Shown here one piece after another: positions 1 through 53,493 of a stretch of 53,857 nucleotides of DNA (positions within the stretch are counted from its first letter, which is position 1; every line of letters begins with the position of its first letter). Source of the stretch: Candidatus Jorgensenbacteria bacterium GW2011_GWB1_50_10 (GTDB lineage: Bacteria; Patescibacteriota; Minisyncoccia; UBA6257; GWB1-50-10). The DNA lies in contig LCQK01000002.1 in NCBI GenBank assembly GCA_001004105.1, forward strand, positions 141,419-195,275, in the 5' to 3' direction. The position numbers were made by a program, and so were the translations under genes. A model generated the notes under the pieces. The model saw only the letters and a list, made by a program, of their open reading frames with translations. It searched no databases and had not been told where the DNA came from.

Positions 1-737
1 CTCTGAACATTCATGCTCCCATCTTCTAATAAGTATGGGTATTGTTCGGGTAAATAACGTGATAAAAAATCTGCCTTGGGAATTTGAGCGTACAATATAT
101 CCATGGGGATGCCATATCTTTCCAATACTGCCTCAACTTTCCGTCGTTGGGTATCTACGTCTCCATAGGTCAAAATGTGAACGCGCGATACCGGCGAAGA
201 AGTAAGAAGTCGTAGTAAGTGCGCCATATCTTCATGAATGAAGTCGCCGTACGAAACGTCGCGAAACGCTATTTCTATCGCTTCTACTTGTTCAGGAAAA
301 CGATCTCTTAATTTATCTATAAATACATCCTGGCGATACATCTTCTCGCCTGTCCTTTCGTCAGGGATCTTACAAGATTCGTACAATTCAACGATCTGAT
401 CTCTAGTAAGACCAAGAGTTTCAAGATGTTCCCATATAGCATTATAGTAACCGGTGGTGTCAAAAAGCGTATCGTCGAAATCAAAAAAATATTCGGTGGC
501 TCTGAACCGGTTATTGTTTTGATATTCAGGATTCGTAGCCGAAGAGGCCGGAATATCGTGGGTTTCCTTGATCCGCATCCGATATCCATAATCACCCACT
601 TCCTCCATAACCCTTTCTTCTTCAGGTATTACATCTATTTCTCTGCGCCTCCCCTCAAGATATTGCTCAACCCACTGGTAATAACGCTCTTGTGGAGATC
701 GTTCTTCTCGTTCAGCTCTAAAAGTTTCTTGATTCAT
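1..737 (-). CDS. HAD-superfamily hydrolase-like protein (partial, 3' end beyond window)
   Basis: Hand translation of the minus strand from the ATG at 735-737 stays open to the window edge: MNQETFRAEREERSPQERYYQW...ATEYFFDFDDTLFDTTGYYNAIWEHL. FDFDDT fits HAD motif I (DxDxT). It is missing from the ORF track because no stop lies inside the window. Confidence 0.5.
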   Translation of the reverse strand, partial: MNQETFRAEREERSPQERYYQWVEQYLEGRRREIDVIPEEERVMEEVGDYGYRMRIKETHDIPASSATNPEYQNNNRFRATEYFFDFDDTLFDTTGYYNAIWEHLETLGLTRDQIVELYESCKIPDERTGEKMYRQDVFIDKLRDRFPEQVEAIEIAFRDVSYGDFIHEDMAHLLRLLTSSPVSRVHILTYGDVDTQRRKVEAVLERYGIPMDILYAQIPKADFLSRYLPEQYPYLLEDGSMNVQ

Positions 738-3721: not shown

Positions 3722-4008
3722 GTGTTCTCAGTCAGGTATTCCGGATTTCTCTCTAAAATCAGGCTTGCCGCGGCCGCTTCTTTTTCCAAGAGCACCGGGT
3801 TAATCGTTTTGTAGAGCGCGTTTTTCAGGTCGGCGTTCAGGGCCTCCACTTTAACGATTTCTGCTTTTAGATTCTTCAGTTCAAAACGGTTATCAACCAA
3901 AGAATTGTATTCAAAAATATACACAAGAGATCCTATTAGAACTATAGCAAACACTAGCATTAAAAAACGGGCATAACTTTCTTTTGCGGCTGGTTTAATG
4001 ATGGTCAT
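3697..4008 (-). CDS. ftsL: Small bitopic coiled-coil division protein (FtsL-like)
   Basis: 103 aa with one TM helix (FLMLVFAIVLIGSLVYIF) followed by a coiled-coil-like segment. It occupies the canonical slot between rsmH and ftsI. Confidence 0.55.
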   Translation of the reverse strand: MTIIKPAAKESYARFLMLVFAIVLIGSLVYIFEYNSLVDNRFELKNLKAEIVKVEALNADLKNALYKTINPVLLEKEAAAASLILERNPEYLTENTWLSDSSY

Positions 4009-5488: not shown

Positions 5489-5551
5489 CAAAACGAAACT
5501 GAAATTATTAACAAGTTATTCCCAGCGCCAAAAACAATATCAATTCATTCG

Positions 5552-5623
5552 TGGGCGTTGCTGGAATCGAACCAGCGGCCTCTGTCGTGTGAGGACAGCG
5601 CTCTACCACTGAGCTAAACGCCC
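5552..5623 (-). tRNA. tRNA-Val (anticodon CAC)
   Basis: Acceptor GGGCGUU/AACGCCC, D arm GCUC-AGUGGUA-GAGC, anticodon arm CUGUC-CUCACAC-GACAG, T arm GCUGG-UUCGAUU-CCAGC. No CCA is encoded. Confidence 0.85.
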
Positions 5624-5633
5624 ATCTGTTGAG

Positions 5634-6002
5634 TTACTGCAACTCAACAGTCGCGCCGACTTCTTCCAGTTTCTTTTTCAATTCCTCCGCTTCTTCTTTT
5701 TTAAGATTTTCTTTTACCACTTTAGGTGCACCGTCGGCAATGTTTTTAGCTTCCTTCAGACCCACGCCCGCGGCTTCTTTGATGATTTTGATGACGTTGA
5801 TTTTCTGGTCACCGGCCGCCTTGAGAAGAACGTTCCAAGACGTTTTCTCGGCCGCTTCCGCATCGCCGGTCACGCCTCCGCCAGAGGCTACGGCGACCGA
5901 GGCCGAAACGTCGAATTTTTCCTCGAGCGCCTTAACAAGATCGGAGAGTTCCACCACCGTCAACTTTTCGATTTTTTCGATTATGTCGTTGAATTTTTCC
6001 AT
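5634..6002 (-). CDS. rplL: 50S ribosomal protein L7/L12
   Basis: 122 aa with an Ala/Gly-rich hinge and the C-terminal domain [56 protein letters not shown]. Confidence 0.95.
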
Positions 6003-6010
6003 CTTTAAAT

Positions 6011-6505
6011 TTATGACTTACGACCTTTTTCGTTCAAAACATGCATCAGCATCTTTATTGGCGTTCCGAGCATTCCCATAAGCTGAGAAAGAAGCACCTC
6101 CCGCGAAGGCAGTGAACCGAAACGAATGACGTTAGCGCTTTCAATGAATGTTTTATCCTTAACATTAAACCCGCCTAAAATTTTCATCGCCTTGTCCGCC
6201 GTTTTCCCAAATTTATAAACGACGGAGGCGGTTTCCTGCAAACCTTCTGGCGAGAAAAGAACGCCGGTCTGGCCTGCAAACGCTTTCGGGTTGAATTCAA
6301 GACCCGCCTTCTCAAAAACAAATTTCAGGAGACGTTTCTTGATCAACTGGAAAACACCGCCCATTTCCTTCACTGCCCGGCGGAAAGCGTTCAGCTTATT
6401 CACGGAAAGGCCGGTGAAATCAACTAAAATTACCGTCTCACTTTTCAGGAGAGAATCGCTTCCACTTTCAATGGCCTTATGCTTTTGTTCTTTTGTTTTA
6501 GGCAT
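6011..6505 (-). CDS. rplJ: 50S ribosomal protein L10
   Basis: 164 aa immediately upstream of rplL, with an L10-like sequence ([23 protein letters not shown]). Confidence 0.9.
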
Positions 6506-6572
6506 AAAAAAAGCTGCGTTTCCGCAGACGTAAAAATATCTTTTGCCTCGGTAGGACTTATTGCTTGCCTAC
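6506..6572 (-). promoter_or_regulatory. Candidate rplJ leader (two hairpins, second followed by U7 abutting the ATG)
   Basis: The minus strand has GTAGG-N12-CCTAC, then CTGCG-GAAA-CGCAG followed by CTTTTTTT-ATG. No Shine-Dalgarno is visible. Resembles an L10-leader-type attenuator, but I cannot verify the fold. Confidence 0.3.
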
Positions 6573-6623
6573 TGTCTACGGATTACTTACTATCTTACCA
6601 CCACCAAAAATAGTGTCAAGAGC

Positions 6624-6816
6624 GAATAGCTTTTCTCTTCTTCGTCAGACAGCTTCGGCCCTGCCTGCCGGCAGGCAGGTCGGGCGATTTCGTCCCGCTT
6701 CGGCGGGACTCAACCCTTCGCTCCGCCTAGATCCGCAAGCGGATGGCGTCGCTCACCCTAAAGGGCTCCGCCGAAGAATTGAGGGGAAAGTCTGACTCAA
6801 AAAAGAAAAGCTATTC
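6624..6816. repeat. Multi-hairpin palindromic element, copy A (candidate structured RNA or MITE-like element)
   Basis: Closed by the inverted termini GAATAGCTTTTCT/AGAAAAGCTATTC. Contains the 20-bp palindrome CCTGCCTGCCGGCAGGCAGG (6660-6679) and the hairpins GTCCCGC-TTCG-GCGGGAC, ATCCG-CAAG-CGGAT and CCC-TAAA-GGG. Homologous in inverse orientation to 32431-32658. Confidence 0.7.
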
Positions 6817-7969: not shown

Positions 7970-9022
7970 CTAACTAAGCAGTATAAACTGCCGACCTCTG
8001 TTTTCCACGGTAATATAAGCGAAGCCAGTAATCAAGAGGAATTTAAAAAGAATGAAAGCCATAAATTCAATGAGCCAGTAAAGAAGAAAAGCGACACCCT
8101 TCACGGTAAAGAAGAAGAGAACGGCAGCAATAATTTCCACGGACGATCTAAGGGACGGCGTGAGATTTTCTAAATAATCCCGGCTGAGCCGAAAAGCGAG
8201 GTCCCGAAAAGTTTCTCTAACTTCAAATGCGCCGATGAATTTTTTAAGCTCTTCGGCAAGCTTTGACGAGGACTCGCTCACAATTCTCACCTGTTCCAAC
8301 GCCGGCAGGCGCTGGAAGTCGATAGCCGCATCCGAGGCGCCCGAATCAAAGCCGCCGGGCGAGAGCCGCCGAAGTTGGTTTCGGGCGAGAGCGTTCAAGA
8401 AATCGCCGACTGTCCCCTCGGGAGCGAAATCCACAGTAAGAACCAGTTTCACAACCGGCCGGGCGGCGACGAGCGTCTCGTTTACGATAGCGCGGCCGAC
8501 ATTCTGGTTGAAATTGCCCCAGACGAAATAATTCAAATAGAAAACAGCCGAGAGAAATAGAATGAAGCCGGTCACGGCCCGGGGCAAAACACTCTTCACG
8601 ATGGAAAAAAATCTGATCTCCAAACTGTTGGAGAGTTCTCGCTGGCCGCGAATTGAGGAAGAAAGAAGCGCGAGGAATAACACCGCCGCACCGAAAACAA
8701 GATAAAGCGGCGTCCCTGGACCGTTAAAAAACCGCGAGTAAAAAACAAGGAGCGGCGCCAAAGTTTCCAAAAGAATGAGAGGCACCATCTTCAGGCGGCT
8801 TTTTACAAAAAAAACCTGGAGCAGAAAAAGGACGAAAAACAAAAGGGCGAAAACGAAGCACCAGAGAAGGTCTGTTCCTTGGACGGAAAGAAGGAATTTA
8901 TTAAATGAGCTGACGGCGAAAAAAACAAAAAAAGCGGCGAGCACTGCGATAATGACCGCTTTCCAAAAACTGCGGTCAATTTCCTCTTCCCTTGATTCCT
9001 TAATTACTTGGAGGGGGCTCAT
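7970..9022 (-). CDS. Polytopic membrane protein of unknown function
   Basis: 350 aa with many hydrophobic helices and no motif I recognise. Inserted between dnaK and dnaJ, overlapping the dnaK 3' end. Confidence 0.6.
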
Positions 9023-16165: not shown

Positions 16166-17977
16166 ATGCGAAAAATCTTCCCCGTTGCCCTTATTTTAAT
16201 CGTTGTTTTTCTTTTGATGCTGAACGCCGCCCTAAAGGAGACGGCAATCTTTGATGAGACCGCCCATATTGCCGCCGGTTACGGTTACGTGCGATATTTG
16301 GACTACCGCCTGAACCCGGAGCATCCGCCGCTTGTGAAAGCTCTCTCCGCTCTGCCGCTTCTCTTTATGAATCTCAATTTCCCCACCGAAGCGGAGAGCT
16401 GGCAGAAAGACGTAAACGGCCAGTGGGACGTCGGAAACCGCTTTCTTTATTCGGAAGGCAATAATCCTGATGAAATCGTCGGCGCAGCAAGAATCTTCCC
16501 GATTATTCTTACTCTCCTTACGATTATTTTGATTTACGTCTGGTCGCTCCAAATTTTGGGCCGCGGCTGGGCGTTAGTCCCCGCTTTTCTTTTCGGTTTT
16601 TCGCCATCCGTTCTTGCTCACGGTCACTACGTCACGACCGACGTCGGAGCGACTTTAGGCGTGCTCTTCGGCTTCTACTTTTTCACTAAAATGCTTGCAA
16701 CGCCCTCACGGAAAAAATCAATCCTCGCCGGATTGGCCTTAGGCGCGGCGCTCCTTATGAAATTTTCCAACGTTCTCCTTCTGCCGATTTTTATCTTTAT
16801 CGGCTTCATCCACTACATTGCAAAAATCAAAAGGGATGGCGCAGCGCTCCATTATTTCTTGGTTTACTTCAAAAGATTCGTCCTGATGTTTTTTGCAGCG
16901 CTCTTTTTGATTTACGCGGTTTATTTTCTATTCACACTCAATTATCCGGCAACTAAAGAACTATCCGATGCCGCCACCACTCTCAGTTCTTTCAACCCGC
17001 GCTGGCTCGTCGATTTGGATTTAGCGCTCATTAAAAACAGCGTTCTCCGTCCCTTAGGCCAGTATCTTTTCGGACTGCTCATGATTCTCCAGCGGGCCGC
17101 CGGCGGCAACACCGCCTATTTTTTGGGCGACCTTTCCGCAGAGGGCTGGTGGTACTACTTCCCCGTTGTGTTTTTGCTCAAAGAACCGTTGCCGTCGCTA
17201 ATTATGATTTTATTGGCTGTGATTATCGGTGTTTCAAAATTCCTGCCTGCTGGCAGGCAGGTAAAATTTAAAAACTTCTCCGACTATTTAGGAACAAATG
17301 TCGCGGAGTTCGGCATGCTCGTTTTCATCGTCATCTACTGGGTACAAAGTATGAGGAGCCCGCTGAACATAGGAATTCGCCACCTTCTGCCTACTATGCC
17401 CTTTATTTACATTCTCGCAACCGGCACCCTGAAATCGTGGATTTTGAAACTCCACGAGTTTCCCCATCATTTTTTGCCTTCGCTTTTTGCCCGCATCAAA
17501 GCATTCTTCAAAATCTCGCTTAAATTCGCACTTATAATCATTTTGCTCGTCTGGTACGCCGCGGAAACCTTCGCCGGGAGTCCTTATTACCTCTCTTATT
17601 TCAACGAAATCGGCGGGGGGATCAAAAACGGCTACAAATACGTCACGGATTCAAACTATGACTGGGGACAGGATTTGAAGCGGCTCGCCGTTTTCGTTAA
17701 GGAGAACAACATTCAAAAAATCGCCGTGGATTACTTCGGCGGCGGCAGTCCGAAATACTATCTTGGAGAGGACGTGGCAGAAAACTGGTGGTCGGCTCGC
17801 GGCAACCCTAAAGACAAAGGAATTGAATGGCTCGCGATTTCCGTAAACTCCCTCCAGGGCGCCCAGGCCATTGCCGACGCTGATTTGAACCGCAAACCCG
17901 AGGACGAATACTCGTGGCTCCGCGACATCAAACCCGCCGCCCGCGCCGGCACATCAATATTCATTTACAAATTCTAA
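16166..17977 (+). CDS. GT39/ArnT-like (PMT family) membrane glycosyltransferase
   Basis: 603 aa and polytopic. The N-terminal loop DETAHIAAGYGY...PEHPPLVK is typical of lipid-carrier-dependent glycosyltransferases. It has a large C-terminal soluble domain and is the only plus-strand gene. Confidence 0.7.
   Translation: MRKIFPVALILIVVFLLMLNAALKETAIFDETAHIAAGYGYVRYLDYRLNPEHPPLVKALSALPLLFMNLNFPTEAESWQKDVNGQWDVGNRFLYSEGNNPDEIVGAARIFPIILTLLTIILIYVWSLQILGRGWALVPAFLFGFSPSVLAHGHYVTTDVGATLGVLFGFYFFTKMLATPSRKKSILAGLALGAALLMKFSNVLLLPIFIFIGFIHYIAKIKRDGAALHYFLVYFKRFVLMFFAALFLIYAVYFLFTLNYPATKELSDAATTLSSFNPRWLVDLDLALIKNSVLRPLGQYLFGLLMILQRAAGGNTAYFLGDLSAEGWWYYFPVVFLLKEPLPSLIMILLAVIIGVSKFLPAGRQVKFKNFSDYLGTNVAEFGMLVFIVIYWVQSMRSPLNIGIRHLLPTMPFIYILATGTLKSWILKLHEFPHHFLPSLFARIKAFFKISLKFALIIILLVWYAAETFAGSPYYLSYFNEIGGGIKNGYKYVTDSNYDWGQDLKRLAVFVKENNIQKIAVDYFGGGSPKYYLGEDVAENWWSARGNPKDKGIEWLAISVNSLQGAQAIADADLNRKPEDEYSWLRDIKPAARAGTSIFIYKF
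17242..17261. repeat. GC-rich palindrome CCTGCCTGC-TG-GCAGGCAGG inside the GT39 gene
   Basis: Same core as the palindrome in elements 6624-6816 and 32431-32658. Translated in frame as FLPAGRQVKF. Confidence 0.8.
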
Positions 17978-22637: not shown

Positions 22638-23045
22638 TTCTCCTAATTATATCTCAAAGAAAAAACGGCGCCGTTTTGATTACGGCGCCGCGGCGCGAAC
22701 TCTGGTTTCATGCGTCATCTCCTCCCGAATTCAAACGTTACCCTGTTTGCGGGCACGGTGTTTGATATCTTGGAGGAGAGTTTCGCCAGCACTTCATGGC
22801 CGGGGAACGGTCCCGAGAGCATCACGATTGGGGTGTAGGTCTTGGCATCACCCTGGACCCCGGCCGAGAAGATGCCCTCCGGGACTTCAACGGCAAGACC
22901 GTGCGGTCCTGGTGCACGTCAGACCAATCCCAGTCGCTGGGCTTGAATTCAAACGGCATTTATTCCTCTCTTCTGGGTACTAATTATCTTTTACTCCCCG
23001 CAGTGAGAAAAATCAATCCTAATCTACTCTCCTAATTTTTTGGCG
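22638..23045 (-). repeat. GC-rich ~410-bp repeated element, copy 1 (frameshifted small ORF or structured RNA, plus own terminator)
   Basis: Near-identical to 25921-26340. On the minus strand it has a junction motif, SD+ATG (22959) MPFEFKPSDWDWSDVHQ..., then a second frame GLAVEVPEGIFSAGVQGDAKTYTPIVMLSGPFPGHEVLAKLSSKISNTVPANRVTFEFGRR-stop (22715). A terminator GGCGCCGU-AAUCAAA-ACGGCGCC+GUUUUUUC follows (22655-22690). Confidence 0.85.
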
Positions 23046-25920: not shown

Positions 25921-26340
25921 ACTCTCCTATTATATCTCAAAAAGTAGCGGCGCCGTTTTGATTACGGCGCCGCGGTGCGAACATCGGCTCTCTGCGTTAT
26001 CTCCTCCCGAATTCAAACGTTACCCTGTTTGCGGGCACGGTGTTTGATATCTTGGAGGAGAGTTTCGCCAGCACTTCATGGCCGGGGAATGGTCCCGAGA
26101 GCATCACGATTGGGGTGTAGGTCTTGGCATCACCCTGGACCCCGGCCGAGAAGATGCCCTCCGGGACTTCAACGGCAAGACCGTGCGGTCTCCTCGGTTA
26201 GTCCCTGGTGCACGTCAGACCAATCCCAATCGCCGGGCTTGAATTCAAACGGCATTTATTCCTCCCTAGAAGTACTAACTATCTTTTACTCCTCGCAATA
26301 AGAAAAATCAATTCTAATCTACTCTCCTAATTTTTTGGCG
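25921..26340 (-). repeat. GC-rich ~420-bp repeated element, copy 2
   Basis: Same layout as copy 1: ATG at 26255, C-terminal frame stop TAA at 25997-25999, terminator 25938-25973. It carries a 14-nt insertion (GACTAACCGAGGAG) relative to copy 1. Confidence 0.85.
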
Positions 26341-31028: not shown

Positions 31029-32153
31029 CTAATAGTTCATTATCACAAGCTCGCTGATTTTACCGCGTTTACTTCCATCGCAGTTGATAAATCTACTTGC
31101 ACTTACCGTTTCAATTCTGTACTTTTTGTATAAATCCTTTATAAATTTAGTATTAGAATTACTCAACATAACCTTGCAACCTTTTTCATCTAAAGCTCTA
31201 AAAATATCGGCCAATTTAGCTTGCTCTTTCTCGAGAAAATCCTCACTTGTATAAGTGGTAAATTTAGCGGTCTTAGTGAGTGGGTAATAAGGGGGGTCAA
31301 AATATATAAAATCATCTTTCTTTACCCTATCTATAATCTTCTCAAAAGACTCAGCATAAAGTTTTACATGCTTTAGAGCTTTACTGGTTGATCTTAAATT
31401 TTGCTCGTCTAGGATACCCGGATTTTTGTACTTCCCGGACGGCACATTAAACTCTCCTTTACTATTAACTCTATAAAGACCGTTAAAACCGGTTTTGTTT
31501 AGATATATAAAAGCTGCAGTTCGCTCAATCTTATTTAAAACATCGCTGTTATAATCGTCTCTAACTTGGTAATAGAACTTTTGGTCATGGTTATTTTTGT
31601 ATTCGTTTAAGACTTTAATAAGATTTTCTACATTATTCTTAATGACTATGTATGTGTTTATTAAGTCTCTATTAAGATCCGACAAAATTGCGCTCTCCGG
31701 CCGTAAATAAAAGAAAACTGCCCCGCCACCAACCATCGGTTCAAAATAGGTATTGTAAGTGTATCGTGGAGGAAAAAATCTAGCATATTGACTAAGTAAC
31801 TGATTCTTACCACCAGCCCATTTAACAAAGGGTTTAAGCTCATATTCTTTAGCACTATTGCCGTTCAATCTTCTAGCTAATTCAGAAGCGGCTCTAATTT
31901 GGACAGCTTTAGCTGAACCTATACCCCTAATTTTAGTTAGTTCTGGAACGGAGGCCTTAGATATATTTTCTAAACCTCTAAATTTGGCCCATAGTCTCTC
32001 AACCGTTACGGCAATAGATTCACCACGAGCGCCTTTCCCTAATAAGGCCATCAAAAGCTCCTTATCGCTAATATTATGAGTCCCTTTTCTAATAATCTTT
32101 TCCCTAGGTCGAAGTTCTAGTGGTAAATCTTTTATAGTGAAGGATTTAGCCAT
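31029..32153 (-). CDS. RadC N-terminal (HhH) domain fused to a Dam-type N6-adenine DNA methyltransferase
   Basis: Residues ~10-95, LRPREKIIRKG...ISDKELLMALLGKG...LTKIRGIGSAKAVQIRAASELARRL, resemble the RadC N-terminus without the JAB domain. These are followed by PFVKWAGGKNQLL, FEPMVGGGAVFF and the catalytic FDPPY. Confidence 0.75.
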   Translation of the reverse strand: MAKSFTIKDLPLELRPREKIIRKGTHNISDKELLMALLGKGARGESIAVTVERLWAKFRGLENISKASVPELTKIRGIGSAKAVQIRAASELARRLNGNSAKEYELKPFVKWAGGKNQLLSQYARFFPPRYTYNTYFEPMVGGGAVFFYLRPESAILSDLNRDLINTYIVIKNNVENLIKVLNEYKNNHDQKFYYQVRDDYNSDVLNKIERTAAFIYLNKTGFNGLYRVNSKGEFNVPSGKYKNPGILDEQNLRSTSKALKHVKLYAESFEKIIDRVKKDDFIYFDPPYYPLTKTAKFTTYTSEDFLEKEQAKLADIFRALDEKGCKVMLSNSNTKFIKDLYKKYRIETVSASRFINCDGSKRGKISELVIMNY

Positions 32154-32217: not shown

Positions 32218-32397
32218 TTACCTCCTCCAATCCTTTACTATCAACTTCCGGCCTTTGAGTTCCACGACCACTTTCTGCCGTTCGCGCCAGCCGAGTTTGC
32301 GGACAACCTCAATCGGCAGGGTGATGCCAAAACTCTTGCCCCCGCCCATTTTGGTGATTTTTCTTATGTTCTTTTCCGTCGTTTTCCTGCGAGCCAT
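32218..32397 (-). CDS. AbrB/MazE/SpoVT-family DNA-binding protein
   Basis: 59-aa ORF below the track cutoff, hand translated: MARRKTTEKNIRKITKMGGGKSFGITLPIEVVRKLGWRERQKVVVELKGRKLIVKDWRR. It has a looped-hinge-helix pattern. Lies 64 nt upstream of the methyltransferase. Confidence 0.6.
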   Translation of the reverse strand: MARRKTTEKNIRKITKMGGGKSFGITLPIEVVRKLGWRERQKVVVELKGRKLIVKDWRR

Positions 32398-32430
32398 AAA
32401 ACTACTGAATTAATTCAGTAATTAATTATA

Positions 32431-32658
32431 TTCGCTTTTTCTTCCCTAAGCCAAACTTGCCCCTCAATTCTTCGGCGGAGCCCACGCACTATGAGGCCGC
32501 ATAGTGCGTGTGGTGAGTGAGCTATCCAATGTATGACATGTCATACATTAGATCTAAAGCGAGCGAAGGGTTGAGGTCGCCTCAGGCGACCGAAATCGCC
32601 CGACCTGCCTGCCGGCAGGCAGAGCCGAAGCTGTCTGGCGCGGGGAAGAAAAAGCGAA
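32431..32658. repeat. Multi-hairpin palindromic element, copy B (inverse orientation to copy A)
   Basis: Closed by TTCGCTTTTTCTTCCC/GGGAAGAAAAAGCGAA. Contains CCTGCCTGCCGGCAGGCAG (32604-32622). Conserved spacers match 6624-6816, while the three side hairpins differ in sequence but still pair. Confidence 0.7.
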
Positions 32659-43661: not shown

Positions 43662-44636
43662 TTATAATAACAATTGCTCTTTCTCTAAGCGGCGGGCGAG
43701 AGGCAAAAACTCCCTCACCAAAAACAGTGTGTAGCTTTCGGGCACGTACCTGATGGGCACATGGTACAAATCAACCCAAAGATGGCTGTAAATCGCAAAG
43801 AGAATAGATTGCTTCAAATAATTATTTTCTTTTTTGGAAAGTTTTCTTTTCTTGTTATATCCTTCCAGAAATTTCTTGATTAACGTCCCATCCAATCCTC
43901 TCTTGTTCAGGCAATTCCACATAATTGTTTTTCCCACATCAAATATAAAGGTGTCTACGTATGTGTTTCCGAAATCAATAACTCCGGTCAATTTATCGCC
44001 AACAAAAAGTTCGTTGTCGGGTTTGATATCCACGTGAATTGGGCCCCGGGGAAATCCCCTGGGCAGACGGTTATTTTCCACTCCCTGCCTTACCTCTTCA
44101 ACGACCGCCTTGAGCTCGGGATGGGTTTGCTTTTTGGCATAACGATACATCAACGCCATAACCTTAGGATTCAAATCATAAAACCTTCGTCTGCCCAACA
44201 TTCTTTTCCTGAACTTGCTGCCCAACCTGTGAAACTCGCCGACGAATTTACCGAGTTGGTACGCCATCCTTAGCGTAATCTTCCTGGGCTGACGGCCTTG
44301 TAAAAATCTGTACGCGCTCACTGCATATCCTTTGAAATTTTCAAGATATTTCCCGCGACTTGATCTAATATAATGCGGAACCGGCAAACGCTTTAAGTGC
44401 GTTAGAAAACTTATCTCGTGCAGGAGCGCGATTCTGGGAACGATTTTCATGTCCGCAACGACAACTTTCTTGCTTGATAAATTGTGCTTCGCAACGATAA
44501 ACCTGCCTTTCGGGGTTGTAATCACTACCTTAGGCGTTTGATAGCCCTGCCGGAAATAATCAATATCGTCTATTCTGCCGAGGTTAAACAAATCTGCGAT
44601 TCCCTCATATTCTTTTCTAGAGAAAAACTTGAGCAT
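43662..44636 (-). CDS. APH/CotS/homoserine-kinase-II-like phosphotransferase
   Basis: 324 aa with the kinase catalytic loop HVDIKPDNELF (HxDxxxxN) and VIDFGN (DFG-like). Starts 5 nt after the stop of the last Cys-rich paralogue. Confidence 0.7.
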   Translation of the reverse strand: MLKFFSRKEYEGIADLFNLGRIDDIDYFRQGYQTPKVVITTPKGRFIVAKHNLSSKKVVVADMKIVPRIALLHEISFLTHLKRLPVPHYIRSSRGKYLENFKGYAVSAYRFLQGRQPRKITLRMAYQLGKFVGEFHRLGSKFRKRMLGRRRFYDLNPKVMALMYRYAKKQTHPELKAVVEEVRQGVENNRLPRGFPRGPIHVDIKPDNELFVGDKLTGVIDFGNTYVDTFIFDVGKTIMWNCLNKRGLDGTLIKKFLEGYNKKRKLSKKENNYLKQSILFAIYSHLWVDLYHVPIRYVPESYTLFLVREFLPLARRLEKEQLLL

Positions 44637-44641
44637 GGATT

Positions 44642-46432
44642 TTATGCTACTTCAGCGTTATAGCATTGCTCGCAGTAGATAATTTCTGGGCGGTCCGGTG
44701 AATACGAGGTTTCAAATTCGTTGGGACAATGGCTGTTCTCGTGGAAGTGTTTGGTTGTATTCTGATAGATACTGTTTTCCGACCTCTCTCCGGCGCAGGT
44801 ACACTTACGATGCCAAAGTTTTAGGGGATTCCTCTGTTTCAAGCGCTGGTAATGCCTACAGTTAGGACATAACCTCGGGAGAGGCAGGTTCATCTTTCGG
44901 TAGAACTGGAGCTCGGGTTCGATGATTTTGAAGGCCTGGGTGCACTGTTCATTGCACTTGCCTCCGTGGGCGCAACTGATGGTCTCCTTGAGAATATCGT
45001 CTCCTACCTCCTTCACGTGGTCGGGGAGATCTTCTGGTTTTATGGTTATTTTGTAATCCTTGGTTTCCGGGTTTTTCCAACGGTAACCCTGAGTCAAAGC
45101 CTGTTCTTTGGTCAGCGGGAAGTACTCCTGGGCAATGGTCTCATTGTAGGCGAAGGGAGAGAGTTCTGGCGGGAAGAATTCGCCGTACTTATAGATCCGG
45201 CCCTTCACATCTACGTAAGGCCTATCATTCATGTGATCTACTATCTTAGGGACCAGCTTCTCATATTCTTCCTTGGTGTATTGCTTATTCAAGATGCAGT
45301 ATTGCTTGTTGCGTAATCCAGCGCAACCAAAGAGATTGGAGCAACCAGCACAATTCACAATATACCTAAGATTGGAAAGATTGATTTGCTTCCTACCGAG
45401 GTTTTTGGGTAGAGCCCGATAAGAAAATTGGACGTTGTACCCTCCGGCTTCCTCCAATTCGTAGCACAGCTCGCCTGCCGCGACCGAAATGTCAAATGAA
45501 TCCTTGGTCGGCATAAAGAGAATAAGTTGACAGTAGGCGCAGTTCTCGAGGTCACGACAAAGGAAAGAATTACGAACGTTCCTTGAATGGTCAATATAAT
45601 CGCCGGTAACGGAATAATTGTGCGTACCGTGCATAAAACGGGCGGGATATTTCATAATGTGGTTTTTAACTTCTTTCCTGACGTTATCTACAGCTACGTG
45701 GGAACCAAAAGAAAAATTCTTTTTGTACTTCTCGTACTCCTCCTTTGTATGCTGTTGGTTGAAAATGCAATATTGCTTGTGCCGCAAGTTCACGCACCCA
45801 AAACAATCACGGCAATCAAGTAAGCGGTAAGAAAAATAAATATTTGAACATTCTACGCAATCGACGCAAAAAAACGATTGGTAACATTTTTCGCAATCCA
45901 ACAACTCATAGGACAATTCCGAGCTTACCGTCTTCGTAGAATCGAAAACGCTCTTTGAATGAAGCAATTCCGTACAATATCCAGAATCCTCGGAAAATCC
46001 AGAGTTAAAAAGAAAATAACAATCTTTAAGATGCGATACGTTGAAACAATAATCACTCCTAACCGAAAAAAGATTCCATCCATGAGGCCAAGGGACAAGA
46101 TTCATAAGTTCTTGAATCTGTTCAAAGAAAGGGCGAGAAAAATCGTAATCCCGGCCATAAACCATGGGGTCCCAACTATCCGAAATCCAATAATCGTATT
46201 TGTATACAGGAAAAGGAACAGCCGGAGAATAGTTGGAAATAACCTTCTTTTCCGAACCGACAACGTCTCTCAAGTGGAGAGTGCGTAAATTACGAAAAAT
46301 CATTCTCCTTACCGCCCTGCACTCCGGGCACCACGTCGGCGGCGGGACTTTTACTTTCTCGTAAAAATCAAAATCCTCCGGCTCTATGACGAAGCTCTGC
46401 TTACAGTTTTGGCAGGTTTTTGTTTCGCTCAT
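44642..46432 (-). CDS. Cysteine-rich multi-zinc-ribbon paralogue, copy A
   Basis: 596 aa from MSETKTCQNCKQSF. Its ATG overlaps the TGA of copy B (ATGA at 46429-46432). The C-terminal ~110 aa are nearly identical to copy D. The second N-terminal ribbon has lost its four Cys. Confidence 0.8.
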   Translation of the reverse strand: MSETKTCQNCKQSFVIEPEDFDFYEKVKVPPPTWCPECRAVRRMIFRNLRTLHLRDVVGSEKKVISNYSPAVPFPVYKYDYWISDSWDPMVYGRDYDFSRPFFEQIQELMNLVPWPHGWNLFSVRSDYCFNVSHLKDCYFLFNSGFSEDSGYCTELLHSKSVFDSTKTVSSELSYELLDCEKCYQSFFCVDCVECSNIYFSYRLLDCRDCFGCVNLRHKQYCIFNQQHTKEEYEKYKKNFSFGSHVAVDNVRKEVKNHIMKYPARFMHGTHNYSVTGDYIDHSRNVRNSFLCRDLENCAYCQLILFMPTKDSFDISVAAGELCYELEEAGGYNVQFSYRALPKNLGRKQINLSNLRYIVNCAGCSNLFGCAGLRNKQYCILNKQYTKEEYEKLVPKIVDHMNDRPYVDVKGRIYKYGEFFPPELSPFAYNETIAQEYFPLTKEQALTQGYRWKNPETKDYKITIKPEDLPDHVKEVGDDILKETISCAHGGKCNEQCTQAFKIIEPELQFYRKMNLPLPRLCPNCRHYQRLKQRNPLKLWHRKCTCAGERSENSIYQNTTKHFHENSHCPNEFETSYSPDRPEIIYCEQCYNAEVA

Positions 46433-48132
46433 ACTACTTCCTGAAGATAACACTTCTTACACAAGATATAATCTGCTTCTTCTTTTGGATAATGGGTTTC
46501 AAATCCGGCGCCGCACTTGGAACATGTTCTTTGAAATACTCGTAGATTTTTTACCCATTTGCGGAATTTTTCGTTAATTCGACAGAAGGGACACTCACGC
46601 GGCAAGGGCAGGTTCATCTTTCGCAGAAATTCCAATTCCATCGGGATAATCTTAAAGCCCCGAGAGCAACTGCTGCAACCAATTACTTCTTTCGTGATAT
46701 TCTCTGGCGCGTCTTTAATATGATCAGGCAATTTGTCTGCAGGTTTCGTAATGCTATGGGAACGGCTATCCGCCTCTCGCCACCCCCAGCCCTTAGAAAG
46801 GGCCTCTTCTTTGGTGATGGGAATAAAAGTCTGAGCCAACGTCTCGCTGTAAACGAAGGGACTAATCTCAACTGGAAAAAATTCGCCGTAGGTATATTTT
46901 AAACCCTGTTTGTCAAAGTAAGGCGTGGAGTTCATGTGCTCTATAATTTTCGCGCGCAACTTTTTAAATTCTTCCTCCGAGTACTGTCTGTTTAGAATAC
47001 AGTAATTGCCTTTCTTCATTGAGACGCAACCGAAATGGTTTGAGCCACCGGTTGAGAGCTTGCAGTACTCGGCGTTTAAGAGGTTAATGCCGGATTCCTG
47101 GCAGAATCTTACGTTAGAAGCGTTCTCGCCAACCACGCACGATTCATAGGCGAGCTGCAAATTATTGCCCCAACTGGAAACATCATAGGCATCTTTTATA
47201 GGAGATTCGGGAAGAAGAAATAAATATTTAGAATCTTCTGCGCCGATAACCTCAAAACATTCTTTGCAATTCTTAGATTGGAAAACATAACTGCCGGTGG
47301 AATTAACCGACAAATCATCAAATTTCGGCCGCGGCGGAAATTTCTTCCAGTGTTCCCTCGCCAAACGTTTTACTTCCTGATAGGTCTTGTAAGAGCCGAG
47401 GTCCCATTTTTTAATTTCCTGAAAATAATCTTCTTTGGAGTAGGGCTTGTTGAATATATGATATTTCCTGTTGCGGAGGCTGGCCGAAGCGAAACAATTC
47501 TGACAATTACTGGAATCTTTCATAAAAGCGCAATCAATTGATTCCACCAAGTCTTCGGAACCGACACAACGGTTGTCCTTATAGGCGTTCGCCAAGTCAT
47601 AACAGAATTCGCATAGCTTCAGCATGGAGCAATCAAGAAGCATCCGGTTGTCCACGACCACGAGCCCATAGGCACAATCCTCATCGAAGTCGGCATAAAA
47701 AAGCATGTAGCAATTTTTGAGGTGACCAGCGTGATTGTTATAAGGAGAAGTCGCTGCCACTTGGAAATCAATAGAAAGTCCCAGAAGCGGCACTTCATGG
47801 AATAATTCGTTAAATTGTTCAAAAAACGGCCTATTGAAATTGTATTCTCTACCATACGAAAGCGGCTCCCATTTATCCGACCACCAGCACTGCGGGCAAT
47901 ACACCTTATAGGGGGAGTTGGGCGAGTACATAGAAATTTTTTCTTCGCCACAAAGGTCACACCTCCGACGGTAAAGCGTCATCAAATTAAAAACTGCTAA
48001 CCGCCGCTGAAAACGACATTTCGGGCAAAAAGTTGGCGGCGGGACGTTGATTTTCCTGTAGAAATCGAAATCTTCCGGCTCAATTATAAATTGCTTTTTA
48101 CAATTCTGACAGGTTTTGGTTTCAGGACTCAT
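46429..48132 (-). CDS. Cysteine-rich multi-zinc-ribbon paralogue, copy B
   Basis: 567 aa from MSPETKTCQNCKKQF. The track's extra 40 N-terminal residues overlap the RelE-like gene, so I rejected them. Confidence 0.8.
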   Translation of the reverse strand: MSPETKTCQNCKKQFIIEPEDFDFYRKINVPPPTFCPKCRFQRRLAVFNLMTLYRRRCDLCGEEKISMYSPNSPYKVYCPQCWWSDKWEPLSYGREYNFNRPFFEQFNELFHEVPLLGLSIDFQVAATSPYNNHAGHLKNCYMLFYADFDEDCAYGLVVVDNRMLLDCSMLKLCEFCYDLANAYKDNRCVGSEDLVESIDCAFMKDSSNCQNCFASASLRNRKYHIFNKPYSKEDYFQEIKKWDLGSYKTYQEVKRLAREHWKKFPPRPKFDDLSVNSTGSYVFQSKNCKECFEVIGAEDSKYLFLLPESPIKDAYDVSSWGNNLQLAYESCVVGENASNVRFCQESGINLLNAEYCKLSTGGSNHFGCVSMKKGNYCILNRQYSEEEFKKLRAKIIEHMNSTPYFDKQGLKYTYGEFFPVEISPFVYSETLAQTFIPITKEEALSKGWGWREADSRSHSITKPADKLPDHIKDAPENITKEVIGCSSCSRGFKIIPMELEFLRKMNLPLPRECPFCRINEKFRKWVKNLRVFQRTCSKCGAGFETHYPKEEADYILCKKCYLQEVV

Positions 48133-48133
48133 T

Positions 48134-48394
48134 CTATTTTCTTTTATAAATTTCTTTTCTGTGGCCGACGGCGAAGAAAACAGCATCTTTAGCGCGAAAA
48201 TAAAAAAGAACCCGGTAACGGCGGGTAATCCGGATTGAGTAAACGCCCTCAAACCCTTTCAGTTTCTTGACGTGAAGACGGGGGTCAAGCCAACTCTTGA
48301 TAAAAATCGCTTCTTGCTTTTTTAAAAGGCGTTTCGCCTCGGTGGGTAGTTTCTCAACGTCGTGAAGAAAGTCATCAGTTCTGTAGATGACCAT
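48134..48394 (-). CDS. RelE/ParE-family toxin
   Basis: 86 aa. HVKKLKGFEGVYSIRITRRYRVLFYFRAKDAVFFAVGHRKEIY is a typical RelE/ParE C-terminal pattern. Confidence 0.75.
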   Translation of the reverse strand: MVIYRTDDFLHDVEKLPTEAKRLLKKQEAIFIKSWLDPRLHVKKLKGFEGVYSIRITRRYRVLFYFRAKDAVFFAVGHRKEIYKRK

Positions 48395-48401
48395 GGCTTG
48401 T

Positions 48402-48590
48402 TTAAGCCCTGGGATAATTCCTGAGGGCTTTCTCCAGAGACTTCTTTATTGCGGCGGCATTCCGATAACCCTTGAGCCTTTCTTCCGGAATAGCTAAAAT
48501 CTTCAAAAGGATGGCTTTAACTTCTGAAACATCACGGCGGAGCACCTTTACTTCCTTATTAAGTTTCTTGACAAGAATTTGAGTAGACAT
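48402..48590 (-). CDS. Small helical protein, positional antitoxin candidate for the RelE-like toxin
   Basis: 62 aa from MSTQILVKKL. Its start overlaps the stop of the upstream HicB-like ORF (TAATG). I recognise no family. Confidence 0.45.
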   Translation of the reverse strand: MSTQILVKKLNKEVKVLRRDVSEVKAILLKILAIPEERLKGYRNAAAIKKSLEKALRNYPRA

Positions 48591-48796
48591 TAAAAGCACT
48601 GTATCACAATTCTTTCTTCACGGCCGCCTGACAATAACTTATTAGCTTCAAGAACCAGGAGGAGAGCCTCTTTAAGATTTGATTTTGTCTCTCTTAAAGT
48701 TTTGCCTTGAGTATTTACGCCGGGAATTTCCTCAACCCAACCCAAATACCATTTTCCTGACTTTTTATAAACTGCTGTAAATTGTCTCTTTGCCAT
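48590..48796 (-). CDS. HicB-like (UPF0150) antitoxin-fold protein, no adjacent HicA
   Basis: 68 aa. FTAVYKKSGKWYLGWVEEIPGVNTQGKTLRETKSNLKEALLLVLE matches the HicB N-terminal fold signature. Confidence 0.6.
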   Translation of the reverse strand: MAKRQFTAVYKKSGKWYLGWVEEIPGVNTQGKTLRETKSNLKEALLLVLEANKLLSGGREERIVIQCF

Positions 48797-48839
48797 AATT
48801 ACTTAATAATACCACGAATATTTCACAAAAATCAACCAA

Positions 48840-50513
48840 CTAAACTACTTCTCGTTGGTAACACTCTTCGCAATAAACAATCTCCGGCCTTTCGGGGGCG
48901 TAGGTGGTTTGAATCGGTTTGCTGCATTTGGCGCAGGTGCGCGAATACAATTTGAACGGCCCGCGGCGGCGGAGGCGGTCGGCATGGCGGCAGTAAAAAC
49001 ACTTGCGCGGAACGGGGATGAGCATTTTGCGGTAGAAATCCAATTCCGGCTTGATGATTCTGTAATTCCGGCCGCAGGAAACACAGGCAAGAGTTTCTTT
49101 TAAGATATTGTCTGTCACGTCCTTGATGTGGTCGGGAATTTGCTCCGATTTTAAGGTTTCCTTACCAGTCGTCATCTGCAAGTCGTCCTGCCAGCGGAAT
49201 CCTTGCTTCAACGCCTCTTCTTTAGTGAGCGGCATATTATCCTGGGCGATTGTTTCGTTATAGGCGAAGAAAGCAAGCTGAGGCGGCATGAATAAGCCGT
49301 ATAAATTCTTAGTTTTAAGCTCACTCACAATGTGTCCTCTTATTTTCTTGTACTCTTCCTCGCTGTATTGCTTGTTCAAAACCGCATATTTGGCCTTCCT
49401 CAACCCATCGCAACCGAAGCAATATTCCCCTCCTTGAAGGGCTATTGAATATTCAACGTCATGAGTATTAATACACCACCAGGAGCCGATGACGCGAGAC
49501 GAGGTTCCAACTGCCACCCCTTCAAGCAATAATTCGCTCTCCCTCCCGTGGCCGATAAGGTCATAACTGTCTTTAACGTTTTTTATGGAAAAAAGGTTTT
49601 TGGAATCTTCGCAAAATGATGCCTCAAAGCAGTTGAAACAATTTTTTGATTCAAAAATATAATCGCCGACAACGCGAACGCTTCTTAAATTACTATTTTC
49701 CCGGTGAGGAAATTTAAGCGAAAATTCATCAAATTTTTTGCGCATTTCTTCTGTTTTCTGATAACTCCCTAAAATATCTTCCACCCTGCGGTTCCATTCC
49801 TCTTTGTTTAATGGTTCATTAAAGAAATGGTAGGATTTGTGTCTTAAATTAACACATCCAAAACAATTCCGGCAACCAACGCAATTTAAAAGAAACCACG
49901 AATCAATGCAGTCAGGGCTGTTCTCTGCCTGGCAAACGCCATTGCTATTTTGGACATTCACGCCTTCATAAACACGCTCAGCTTTATCGGCGTAATAAGT
50001 GTCAAAAGTATCGCGGCTATTGGTGAGACCTCGCGAATAGGCGCAGTTTTCGTTGCGCGGACCGGAGTTAAAAATAAGATAGCAATCTTTGTTGGCGCCG
50101 GAAAAATTAGTCCAGTCGCTCCGAATATTCGGTCCCATGTCGGTGGAAGCGAATATGCCGGACTTAGGAACCTGAAGTATCAATTCAGAAAATTGCTCAA
50201 AAAACGGCCGCGAGAAATCGTAATCCCGGCCGTAAGAGAGCGGGTCCCACTTATCCGATAGCCAGCAATCGCGGCAATAGACAACATAAGGAGATTTGTG
50301 GTGGTACATCGCGACGGTGGATTTTCCGCAAAGTTCACACTTACGCGAGTAAAGATTCATCTCGTTTCTGAAAACCGCTCGCCTTCTAAATCGGCAATCG
50401 GGGCACAAAACCGGCGCCGGGACGCCCATTTTTTCGTAGAAACCCAAATCGTCCGGCGTGATTTCAAACTGGGCTTTGCAGTTTTTACAGGATTTTGTTT
50501 CTCTATTCATCAT
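48840..50513 (-). CDS. Cysteine-rich multi-zinc-ribbon paralogue, copy C
   Basis: 557 aa, MMNRETKSCKNCKAQFEITPDDLGFYEKMGVPAPVLCPDCR...YCEECYQREVV. Confidence 0.8.
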   Translation of the reverse strand: MMNRETKSCKNCKAQFEITPDDLGFYEKMGVPAPVLCPDCRFRRRAVFRNEMNLYSRKCELCGKSTVAMYHHKSPYVVYCRDCWLSDKWDPLSYGRDYDFSRPFFEQFSELILQVPKSGIFASTDMGPNIRSDWTNFSGANKDCYLIFNSGPRNENCAYSRGLTNSRDTFDTYYADKAERVYEGVNVQNSNGVCQAENSPDCIDSWFLLNCVGCRNCFGCVNLRHKSYHFFNEPLNKEEWNRRVEDILGSYQKTEEMRKKFDEFSLKFPHRENSNLRSVRVVGDYIFESKNCFNCFEASFCEDSKNLFSIKNVKDSYDLIGHGRESELLLEGVAVGTSSRVIGSWWCINTHDVEYSIALQGGEYCFGCDGLRKAKYAVLNKQYSEEEYKKIRGHIVSELKTKNLYGLFMPPQLAFFAYNETIAQDNMPLTKEEALKQGFRWQDDLQMTTGKETLKSEQIPDHIKDVTDNILKETLACVSCGRNYRIIKPELDFYRKMLIPVPRKCFYCRHADRLRRRGPFKLYSRTCAKCSKPIQTTYAPERPEIVYCEECYQREVV

Positions 50514-50537
50514 CTTAATTTGAGACAGTATGACGCG

Positions 50538-52325: not shown

Positions 52326-52615
52326 CGAAAAATTGTGTCTTTGATTCGCTGGACCTCATCTTTGACCACGTCGCCGTCATAGTCGCCGCTGTGAGCGGTC
52401 ACACCTTCATAAATCGGCTTCTTCTGGTCAAGGTGAATGTTGAAAGTAATGATATCCTTATCATCTTTCACATAAATATGAAAACGCGGATAGTCGCCGC
52501 CCAAGGGACGGACGCAGTTCAATTCGCCTTGAGGCGTATATCCCAACGGCCGGTACCCCATCTTCCGTATCAAGTCCCGGAGATTATAACTTTTGTTGTA
52601 AATCTTGAAGGTCAT
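52322..52615 (-). CDS. Hypothetical 97-aa protein translationally coupled on both sides to Cys-rich paralogues
   Basis: ATGA overlaps at 52612-52615 and 52322-52325. The sequence contains YPRFHIYVKDD...IHLDQKKPIYEGVTAHSGDYDG. I recognise no family. Confidence 0.6.
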   Translation of the reverse strand: MTFKIYNKSYNLRDLIRKMGYRPLGYTPQGELNCVRPLGGDYPRFHIYVKDDKDIITFNIHLDQKKPIYEGVTAHSGDYDGDVVKDEVQRIKDTIFR

Positions 52616-53493
52616 GCTATTTCCACCTTATAACACTCCTCGCAATAGATAATCTCCGGCCTCTCAGGAGCGTAGGAGGTCTGAATTGGTCGGCTACACT
52701 TTTGACAGGAACGATTGTAAAGTCTCGGCGGATTAGTGCGCACAAAACGAGCATTGTGCCGACAGGTAGGACACTCTCGCGGCAGCGGGATTGAAAGGTT
52801 TTTCATAAGCGCGAGTTCCCCCGAAACAATGCAAAAGGCCTTTCCGCAAGAAGCGCAAGCGATTACTTCTTGGAGTATTGTATCCGGCGTTTCCGCAAGC
52901 GTATCGGGCATATCAACCCATTGCTTGGTAGCAGTATAAGGCGTGGCAGTAAATTCATGCCACTTGAATCCTGAAGCGAGTGATTCTTTCTCTGTTTTGG
53001 GAAAGTAAGCGTGGGCGAGGCTTTCGTTGTAAGCGAAGAGAGAAAGATTAATCGGTAAGAACTCTCCATATGACCAAATGCGCCCTTGAGGATCCCGATA
53101 CGGATTTCTTTCCATGTCCTTTTTAATTTGAGAAACAAGGCGCTCGTATTCCTCTTTTGGGTATCCCTTATTTAAAATGCAATAATGTTTCCTCTTTAAG
53201 CTGACGCACCCAAAAACGTGCTTGCAGGAAATAGCGTAAATAGAATATTCATTGTCCAAGGCGTCGGGCCAGCACTCAAAAGAAAATTTGACACCATTTG
53301 CTCCTTCCCCAACCACAGCGGCTTCATAAATTTTCTCCGCACCATTTCCCCATCCCGAATAGTCATAGCAGTCTCGGGCGTGGGGTACGCTCACAAACTG
53401 CGCATAACGGCTGTCTTCCGCGCCGGCTACCATGTAGGCGTCATGGGTGTTTTTTGATTCGTAGATATAATCGCCGGTTACCCTCACGTTCAA
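52612..53493 (-). pseudogene. Cysteine-rich paralogue, copy E (5'-truncated: only the C-terminal half is present)
   Basis: Homology to copies A-D begins at LNVRVTGDYIYESKN, which corresponds to about residue 275 of copy C, and runs to ...YCEECYKVEIA. No N-terminal ribbons are present, and only a TTG 'start' is available. Confidence 0.6.

Follow-up and report, generated by a model that had tools for sequence, protein, structure and literature searches.

A candidate family of dispersed, structured non-coding RNA modules in Harrisonbacteria-like Parcubacteria

The stretch of DNA analysed here (the window; 53,857 nt) is taken from contig LCQK01000002.1 of Candidatus Jorgensenbacteria bacterium GW2011_GWB1_50_10 (assembly GCA_001004105.1, positions 141,419 to 195,275 of the forward strand), and it carries two copies of an intergenic multi-hairpin element. 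Copy A (6624-6816, plus strand, 193 nt) lies between the stop codon of dnaJ and the promoter and L10 leader of rplJ, antisense to both neighbours, while copy B (32431-32658, minus strand, 228 nt) lies between an upstream NYN-domain gene and a downstream MazE/AbrB-like gene, which is followed by the gene of a RadC_N-Dam methylase. An earlier note on this DNA had described both copies at these positions, one inverted with respect to the other, and both are confirmed here. The covariance model built for the family scores copy A at 142-158 bits and copy B at 142-175 bits, and a filters-off scan of the 53.9 kb found A and B only, with no third copy, each at 142 bits on the strand given here compared with about 21 bits on the opposite strand. 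Four sequence blocks are shared by the copies, and the window contains each of them exactly twice. By chance the 22-mer GCTCCGCCGAAGAATTGAGGGG is expected zero times, and shuffles never matched it; the two shared 14-mers were individually not significant at 2 mismatches. Fold energies lie far below those of dinucleotide shuffles (z = -5.9 for copy A and -9.6 for copy B). A supposed internally deleted third copy, joining 6692 to 6763, had depths of 5.2 and 11.3, which are exactly those of the contig holding the interior of copy B, and the joint therefore reflects copy B reads aligned on copy A.

Both copies fold into the same series of helices. In copy A, the outer stem P1 pairs GAAUAGCUUUUCU (6624-6636) with AGAAAAGCUAUUC (6804-6816) through 13 of 13 Watson-Crick pairs, P2 pairs GUCAGAC (6644-6650) with GUCUGAC (6790-6796), and P3 pairs CUUCGGC (6653-6659) with GCCGAAG (6770-6776). 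A 20-nt palindrome, CCTGCCTGCCGGCAGGCAGG, is inserted at 6660-6679 and stands outside the family consensus. The P4/P5 domain (6680-6723) then runs in the order UC, GGGCGA (P4), UUUCG, the P5 hairpin (6693-6708), CUCAACCCU and UCGCUC (P4'), followed at 6724-6748 by P6 (CGC/GCG), a YUAG bulge and the P7 hairpin AUCCG-CAAG-CGGAU, and at 6749-6769 by J6/8 (UCGCUCA), the P8 hairpin CCC-UAAA-GGG and J8/3 (CUCC), all on the plus strand.

Copy B, on the minus strand, forms P1 from UUCGCUUUUUCUUCCC (32643-32658) and GGGAAGAAAAAGCGAA (32431-32446) with 16 of 16 positions paired, P2 from GCCAGAC (32633-32639) and GUUUGGC (32450-32456) with one G.U, and P3 from CUUCGGC (32624-32630) and GCCGAAG (32470-32476). 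Its inserted palindrome, TCTGCCTGCCGGCAGGCAGG, occupies the site equivalent to that of copy A (32604-32623). The P4/P5 domain at 32561-32603 has GUCGCC-UGA-GGCGAC as P5; P6 (GCU/AGC) carries a 14-bp P7 hairpin (32521-32560), and J6/8 (UCACUCA), a long P8 hairpin and J8/3 (CUCC) complete the junction (32477-32520). The closing stems thus differ and still pair, as do the three side hairpins, just as the earlier note had held. The blocks that it took for single-stranded spacers are indeed shared, but they are partly helical: CAGAC/GTCTG belongs to P2, CTTCGGC/GCCGAAG to P3 and GGGCGA/TCGCTC to P4.

Seven further copies (C to I) were found elsewhere, in other genomes and metagenomes of the candidate phyla radiation (CPR), so that the family has nine distinct members. 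A gapped exact pattern run against JGI metagenomes gave copies C (the same at loci L122, L123 and L125), D (L124) and E (L126/L127), and a second pattern run against GTDB genomes, then a covariance-model search, gave copies F (L136), G (L141), H (L145, Harrisonbacteria) and I (L140, Harrisonbacteria), the last with a degenerate 3' half. All seven required exact blocks of the TCGGGCGATTTCG and/or CTCAACCC type, and more divergent members would escape such patterns. Element length ranges from about 165 to 230 nt. Copies C and E were recovered again on two contigs (L134 and L139) of one metagenome-assembled genome (MAG), CAZGRD01; two genomes, this MAG and that of the window, hold at least two copies each. 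In another sample (run X9) there is an A-like copy with 97 nt identical to A, without the palindrome and with a different P1 strand, and read variants without the CCTGCC... hairpin are present in the source metagenomes. Read depth there over the conserved blocks is 5-10 times that of the flanks, a figure that mixes several genomes and the separate palindrome.

Other searches gave chance matches or none. An exact 19-mer of the 3' block met three chance matches in genome contigs (L001-3), none with the other blocks, and a 32-mer spanning the palindrome had no match in metagenome contigs, which is put down to the palindrome being specific to the genome of the window. The pattern CTTCGGC N{0,30} GTCGGGCGATTTCG returned at least 118 chance matches in GC-rich genomes among the genome contigs, including a 'Nealsonbacteria' contig that proved to be GC-rich coding sequence; this pattern was unsuitable because its G ahead of TCGGGCG is part of the palindrome insert. 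The window belongs to a CPR genome of Rifle-type groundwater. Judged by DnaJ, its nearest species representatives carry the label Candidatus Harrisonbacteria (51% identity), and DnaJ relatives with 10-kb flanks (Harrisonbacteria-like loci) contained no copy. In the literature, the core strings were absent from papers in a relevant context, and keyword searches likewise gave no such element.

The architecture was derived with RNAalifold from plain MAFFT alignments and from a covariance-model alignment of the nine copies, and all of these agree. Three stacked closing stems, P1-P2-P3, stand around a four-way junction that bears the arms P4/P5, P6/P7 and P8. P1 is an A/U-rich outer stem of 12-16 bp, its 5' strand pyrimidine-rich and its 3' strand purine-rich, and is separated from P2 by an internal loop. 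P2 reads CCAGAC/GUCUGG in one subgroup of copies and GGCAACA/UGUUGCC in the other; P3 comprises 7 bp, CUUCGGC/GCCGAAG, which in copy D become CUUCAGC/GCUGAAG, with copy C as a G.U intermediate. Around the junction follow the linker UC, the P4 arm, the P6/P7 arm, a linker, the P8 arm and the linker CUYC, and both UC and CUYC are conserved. P4 (GGGCGA/UCGCYC) encloses an asymmetric internal loop, UUUCG / CUCAACCCY, and is capped by the variable hairpin P5; the strands of this loop are identical in all copies, partly owing to the search method. In one subgroup P6, 3 bp with the YUAG bulge, underlies P7, being GCU/AGC in copies B to E and CGC/GCG in copy A. At the base of P8 (CYC/GGG), group 1 has CCC/GGG and group 2 has CUC/GGG, and P5, P7 and P8 are unrelated hairpins set at fixed sites in each copy. 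The two subgroups differ throughout P1, P2, P5, P7 and P8, yet GGGCUYCGC, the GC before UCGGGCG, and UCGCY, none of them used in the search, are kept between them. A pseudoknot of CUCAACCC with the 3' internal loop was considered and found unsupported, as the possible pairings shift register between copies.

In the covariance-model alignment of the nine copies, standard pairs fill 89.8% of the cells compared with 37-49% after a shift of the partner by 1-3 columns, and 34 of the 53 base pairs show double-sided changes, including all 15 pairs of P1, 6 of 7 in P2 and 6 of 7 in P7 that covary. Compensatory change is also seen in the MAFFT alignments, at 23 of 53 pairs in one and 20 of 33 in the other. 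None of 500 shuffles reached any of the covariation measures, a statistic that relatedness among the nine sequences can inflate. The compensatory pairs go beyond those of the controls, as a structured RNA calls for, and the search of CPR genomes and metagenomes with a covariance model, which the earlier note had proposed, brought more copies in which the covariation persists. Its view that structure is conserved where sequence is not thus holds for seven copies beyond the original two. These data demonstrate that the family exists, that its fold is kept both by compensatory change and by wholesale replacement of hairpins, and that the core of the junction is conserved in sequence.

No known family accounts for this fold. 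Rfam 15 (4227 models) gave no match on the element at the gathering threshold, whether in the window or at L123, L124, L127, L136, L140, L141 and L145, which together cover all nine loci, and at E <= 10 copies A and B returned noise only (mir-351, rsmX, Plasmid_RNAIII), in line with the earlier failure to place it in a family. A resemblance of GCUUUAGAU...AUAGCUCACU to the L10/L11 binding region of 23S rRNA was set aside, the second subgroup not sharing it.

The element does not code for protein. The arm of P5 measures 9, 11, 15 or 16 nt among the copies, and since hairpin lengths differ by non-multiples of 3, the reading frame between the two conserved blocks is not kept. Neither the single-frame translation nor a concatenate of 11 frames from 7 copies has a protein homologue, and the open reading frame (ORF) that crosses the element is an artefact, as had been suspected from the start.

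Two observations speak to the strand. On the one given here, G.U cells number 18 against 8 A.C cells, corresponding to about six and three independent events, respectively; among the G.U events are one in P4, which five copies retain where the other subgroup has G-C, and a U.G at the base of P8 in the second subgroup. In addition, seven or eight of the nine copies share the orientation of the upstream gene, with a one-sided binomial probability of ~0.02 if the count is eight. These data make it likely that the strand given here is the transcribed one. Tetraloops of the cUUCGg type were also tried as a strand marker: such a loop, C(UUCG)G, is unambiguous only in P5 of copy A, while for the CCUUCGGA hairpins of F, G and I a 4-bp stem with a UUC triloop is the simpler reading, and the argument was dropped.

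All copies are intergenic and stand in unrelated housekeeping contexts. Copy C has guaA upstream and an oxidoreductase gene downstream; copy D begins at the stop codon of rplL and precedes tRNA-Val; copy E separates a YggT-like gene from one for a secreted hypothetical protein; copy G lies between a PHP-domain gene and a NUDIX gene; and copies H and I follow genes for an HtrA-like protein and RNase Y, respectively. Four copies, G, H and I among them, start 0-7 nt past the upstream stop codon. Such contexts bear on whether the element might be a cis-regulatory leader, that is a riboswitch or protein-binding leader of the downstream gene. The four-way junction and its conserved core are reminiscent of an aptamer, copy B stands upstream of the MazE/AbrB-like gene and copy A adjoins the L10 leader. 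A riboswitch or leader would be expected in the 5' untranslated regions of related genes, whereas the downstream genes here are unrelated (MazE-like, oxidoreductase, tRNA-Val, NUDIX and hypotheticals), copy A, convergent with dnaJ, lacks a gene downstream, and the four copies just mentioned begin where the upstream gene ends. We regard a leader as extremely unlikely.

The positions of the copies are not fixed. Locus L124 and the window share the gene block dnaJ-rplJ-rplL-tRNA-Val, and their DnaJ proteins are 59% identical. In the window, copy A lies between dnaJ and rplJ and the rplL-tRNA-Val gap is only 10 nt, while in L124 the dnaJ-rplJ gap holds the L10 leader only and copy D sits between rplL and tRNA-Val. 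This reciprocal presence and absence in a shared block shows that related genomes carry their copies at different places. Copies B and C, although most closely related to each other, occupy different loci. An identical L10 protein is encoded on NCBI GCA_001003655.1 contig LCPO01000018.1 and in several groundwater assemblies, and exact-protein look-ups with L10 and the MazE-like protein gave 13 loci at the A and B positions, 10 of them with a whole or contig-truncated copy. No empty site was seen among the 13, the remaining three being contigs too short to tell, and population reads contained no empty-site alleles. One contig has three base differences in copy A, which may be sequencing errors.

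Multiple copies, strictly intergenic and in unrelated contexts, the reciprocal pattern of A and D and the separate loci of B and C are what would be seen if the element were a dispersed repeat, selfish or neutral, like those of the REP/BIME, ERIC, BOX or Correia kind. It would then be spread or shuffled as DNA by an unspecified route and have no cellular function of its own, its palindromes being tolerated or at most of mild use in cis, as an insulator or as a barrier where transcripts end. The host genomes also carry other small palindromic repeats (a 20-nt palindrome and a 3' module, below), copy I has lost its 3' half, and the long outer stem would form a hairpin on either strand, so that the antisense copy A could act as a barrier at the end of dnaJ. 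Against this, the P1 termini are the least conserved part and the interior junction the most, the opposite of elements mobilised by end-binding enzymes, and neither hairpin replacement at fixed sites nor a conserved asymmetric internal loop is needed for a simple barrier. The apparently low copy number, the lack of empty-site alleles and that of target-site duplications (no direct repeat beside P1 on either flank of any of the nine copies inspected) point the same way. A passive repeat is a possible, if doubtful, account of the data.

The distribution of conserved nucleotides invites a second comparison. They fall in loops and junctions while the stems vary and some are optional; there are several copies per genome with no consistent gene association, as is the case for small ribozymes, and several copies are probably part of polycistronic transcripts, an example being copy D, which separates rplL from tRNA-Val. 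A new self-cleaving or self-processing ribozyme might cut read-through transcripts between genes, with the internal loop and junction as putative active site and the variable stems as scaffold. No Rfam ribozyme model matches the element, however, it is larger than most self-cleaving classes, and a cleavage-site signature was not identified, which leaves this proposal quite unlikely.

The ends of the element likewise bear on the proposal that it is non-autonomous mobile DNA, either recognised as folded single-stranded DNA (ssDNA) or a miniature inverted-repeat transposable element (MITE), of IS200/IS605, attC-like or REP/RAYT type. Structure is kept while sequence varies, the ends are inverted repeats, and positions differ between related genomes. 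A MITE has conserved terminal inverted repeats, but here the P1 strands differ between copies, being GAAUAGCUUUUCU (A), UUCGCUUUUUCUUCCC (B), AAAAAUUUCUUCC (D), AGAAACUUUUGGUCUC (E) and AGAAAACUAUUCUC (G), and they are not flanked by a duplicated target. The ends have none of the R''/R' boxes (RYYYAAC ... GTTRRRY) of an integron attC site, and inspection revealed no integrase or cassette array. Pfam scans of 20 window proteins, together with inspection of the flanking ORFs elsewhere, which are of housekeeping type, identified no Y1/HUH or other transposase, integrase, reverse transcriptase, TnpB, IscB or other mobility gene near any copy. G.U pairs are kept at conserved positions and orientation is biased relative to transcription. 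In 2.9 million viral contigs a relaxed pattern hit 46 loci, none of which passed the covariance model, and the phage and plasmid collections had no match. We consider mobile DNA of this sort very unlikely. The earlier note had named a MITE with target-site duplications as one finding that would speak against its view, and no MITE hallmarks were found; of its own two options, a functional RNA or an ssDNA-recognised mobile element, a folded functional nucleic acid stands and the mobile one is the less supported.

The 20-nt palindrome is a separate matter. It lies between the P3 5' strand and the UC linker in both window copies and is absent from all seven other members. In the form CCTGCCTGC(C/T)GGCAGGCAGG it occurs as a perfect palindrome at 6660-6679, 17242-17261 and 32604-32623, the second occurrence (1 mismatch) in frame within the coding sequence of a PMT_2 glycosyltransferase (16166-17977, plus strand), where it reads FLPAGRQV. 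Read depth over it is 4-10 times that of its flanks, and it is also found on other, more abundant contigs with unrelated flanks. Its presence at unrelated sites in several co-occurring genomes identifies it as an independent, dispersed mini-palindrome and not a feature of the family. The hairpin that the earlier note saw shared by both copies is thus present in A and B, with T in place of C as its first letter in B, but is an unrelated optional insert.

A further repeat adjoins copy B at 32397-32430 (minus strand), where TATAAT, the palindrome TTACTGAATTAATTCAGTAG and UUUUA form a 3' module; the same module lies downstream of copy C (L122). Its read depth of 4-6 times the flanks indicates a separate repeat. 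A promoter-like TTGGCT-18-TATAAT spans the 3' end of copy B, using the P2 3' strand and the module, and faces the downstream gene.

Several features next to the copies deserve record. Near copy A, the window encodes tRNA-Val at 5551-5623 and rplL at 5634-6002, both on the minus strand, and as the 10 nt from the rplL stop to tRNA-Val contain no terminator, the tRNA is probably co-transcribed with rplJL. The L10 leader (RF00557) at 6498-6599 (minus strand) scores 44 bits, exactly its gathering score, and a strong promoter-like TTGACA-16-TAAGAT at 6619-6592 (minus strand) adjoins the 5' end of copy A on the opposite strand. In L124, at ~3880-3990 (minus strand), the last 8 rplL codons are duplicated, in the order GASVELQ*, a 66-nt three-hairpin insert and GATVELQ*; the second end matches that of rplL in the window and copy D follows it directly. 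This looks like a miniature insertion carrying its own copy of the gene end. A transfer-messenger RNA (8014-8343, minus strand) lies 0.8 kb from copy E in L127, and the Harrisonbacteria locus of copy I (L140) has a group I intron at 51-297 (plus strand, 92 bits) near tRNA genes.

Elsewhere in the window, downstream of copy B, the gene at 31029-32153 (minus strand) fuses a RadC N-terminal domain (UPF0758_N, helix-hairpin-helix) to a Dam-type N6-adenine methyltransferase; it follows the MazE/AbrB-like protein of 59 amino acids (aa) and precedes several domain-less ORFs, and in a strain variant (L268) the methylase is shorter, at 340 aa. Between 19500 and 28700, many genes are preceded by near-identical ribosome-binding-site regions (TCTCCTAATTTTTTGGTGG, plus strand) and by palindromes of 28-46 nt (ATTCTAACATTCT..AGAATGTTAGAAT), and a 252-nt direct repeat (22657-22908 and 25939-26190) is 94% identical; the genes include those for a REase_MTES_1575/DUF559 protein, a Pif1-like helicase and a Fic protein. 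A tandem array at 44600-53500 (minus strand) encodes four or five paralogous proteins of about 560-610 aa, which share DNA blocks of 60-80% identity and have no Pfam domain save weak treble-clef zinc-finger matches.

Taken together, the conserved core, the free termini and the covarying stems lead us to favour, on balance, a family not described before, made up of structured non-coding RNA modules that are dispersed in multiple copies in Harrisonbacteria-like Parcubacteria (CPR) of groundwater and function at the RNA level. Non-coding DNA is scarce in the tiny genomes of CPR bacteria. To our knowledge, almost no non-coding RNAs are known from this lineage beyond the universal ones. An element of 200 nt that is maintained in several diverged copies, with its fold and an invariant core, in such compact genomes would be unlikely to be idle. 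Transcription of the element would be on the strand given here and would mostly be read-through that starts at the upstream gene, and the P1-P2-P3 stack would isolate the fold from the surrounding transcript. The UC, UUUCG, CUCAACCCY and CUYC nucleotides may then be the working part, as a putative protein or ligand binding site or a catalytic core, with the peripheral hairpins serving perhaps as struts only.

Several findings weigh against such an RNA-level function. The invariance of TCGGGCGATTTCG and CTCAACCC is partly by construction, as the search patterns contained both, and the caution on relatedness given above with the shuffle result applies here too. Copy A is antisense to both neighbours and copy F comes directly after a strong terminator; no promoter or terminator was found consistently across the copies. 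In the metatranscriptomes of the same studies the organism is uncovered altogether, element and flanking genes alike, and copy D is present in no RNA run. In 7 of 8 copies the minimum free energy is lower for the reverse complement, although we treat this measure as uninformative for the strand and the difference as an effect of composition, probably of a G-rich reverse complement. Genomic positions that are not conserved between relatives are also unusual for a housekeeping non-coding RNA gene.

A bolder form of the favoured reading, and an unlikely one, takes the element for a new RNA of CPR bacteria that is catalytic or of guide type. It might be a self-cleaving or self-processing ribozyme, which would punctuate read-through transcripts in promoter-poor, compact genomes, or the RNA partner of an unlinked mobilising protein, which would explain both the shifting positions and a conserved interior with free ends. 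Whichever form of RNA module applies, the work adds a well-supported candidate RNA family for CPR, with a covariance model, and its fixed core, free termini, swapped hairpins and relocating copies hint at activity at the RNA level; were the element a structured repeat only, it would document how repeats evolve under fold constraints in reduced genomes.

The element can be set beside several known systems. Like IscB/TnpB omega-RNAs and IS110 bridge RNAs it has about 150-250 nt, a complex fold and several dispersed copies, but in those RNAs a guide segment is left unpaired and the gene of the nuclease or recombinase is always adjacent, whereas here there is no such gene within 2.5-10 kb and the variable parts are paired stems. 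With retron msr-msd RNAs it shares paired ends (P1 resembling a1/a2), several hairpins and a similar size; a retron has a reverse transcriptase gene downstream, and the genes following the copies are instead those of a MazE-like protein and the Dam methylase (B), a convergent dnaJ (A), an oxidoreductase (C), tRNA-Val (D) and NUDIX (G). In topology the element recalls the tRNA cloverleaf, with a closing helix of 7 bp (P3), a linker of 2 nt starting with U and three arms, yet D-loop and T-loop signatures are missing, the P1-P2 stack is extra, and neither ARAGORN nor the tRNA model matches. Twister, twister-sister, hatchet and hammerhead ribozymes have conserved junctions and loops, variable or optional stems and several copies in unrelated contexts, as does the element, which differs in its larger size, in matching no model and in that its catalysis is putative only.

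Two classes come nearer. ERIC, BOX, Correia (CREE) and REP/BIME repeats are non-coding and scattered between genes, consist of imperfect palindromes that fold on co-transcription, are modular with optional inserts, and vary in position between related genomes. The element departs from them in having ends that vary freely with compensation around a conserved interior junction, in being a four-way junction instead of a simple hairpin with no TA or other target duplication, and in copy number, which for REP, BIME and ERIC is tens to hundreds per genome and here seems low, with two copies in 54 kb and at least two per genome in the two genomes named above. Orphan non-coding RNA motifs such as raiA, ROOL and HEARO (before its function was known) are multi-stem covarying folds with conserved loops and junctions and without obvious gene association; the element differs in being confined, as sampled, to a few Harrisonbacteria-like CPR genomes and in having several diverged paralogues per genome. 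By analogy, then, its behaviour seems most to resemble that of an intergenic structured repeat (ERIC, BOX, Correia), and its pattern of conservation appears closest to that of an orphan functional RNA or small ribozyme.

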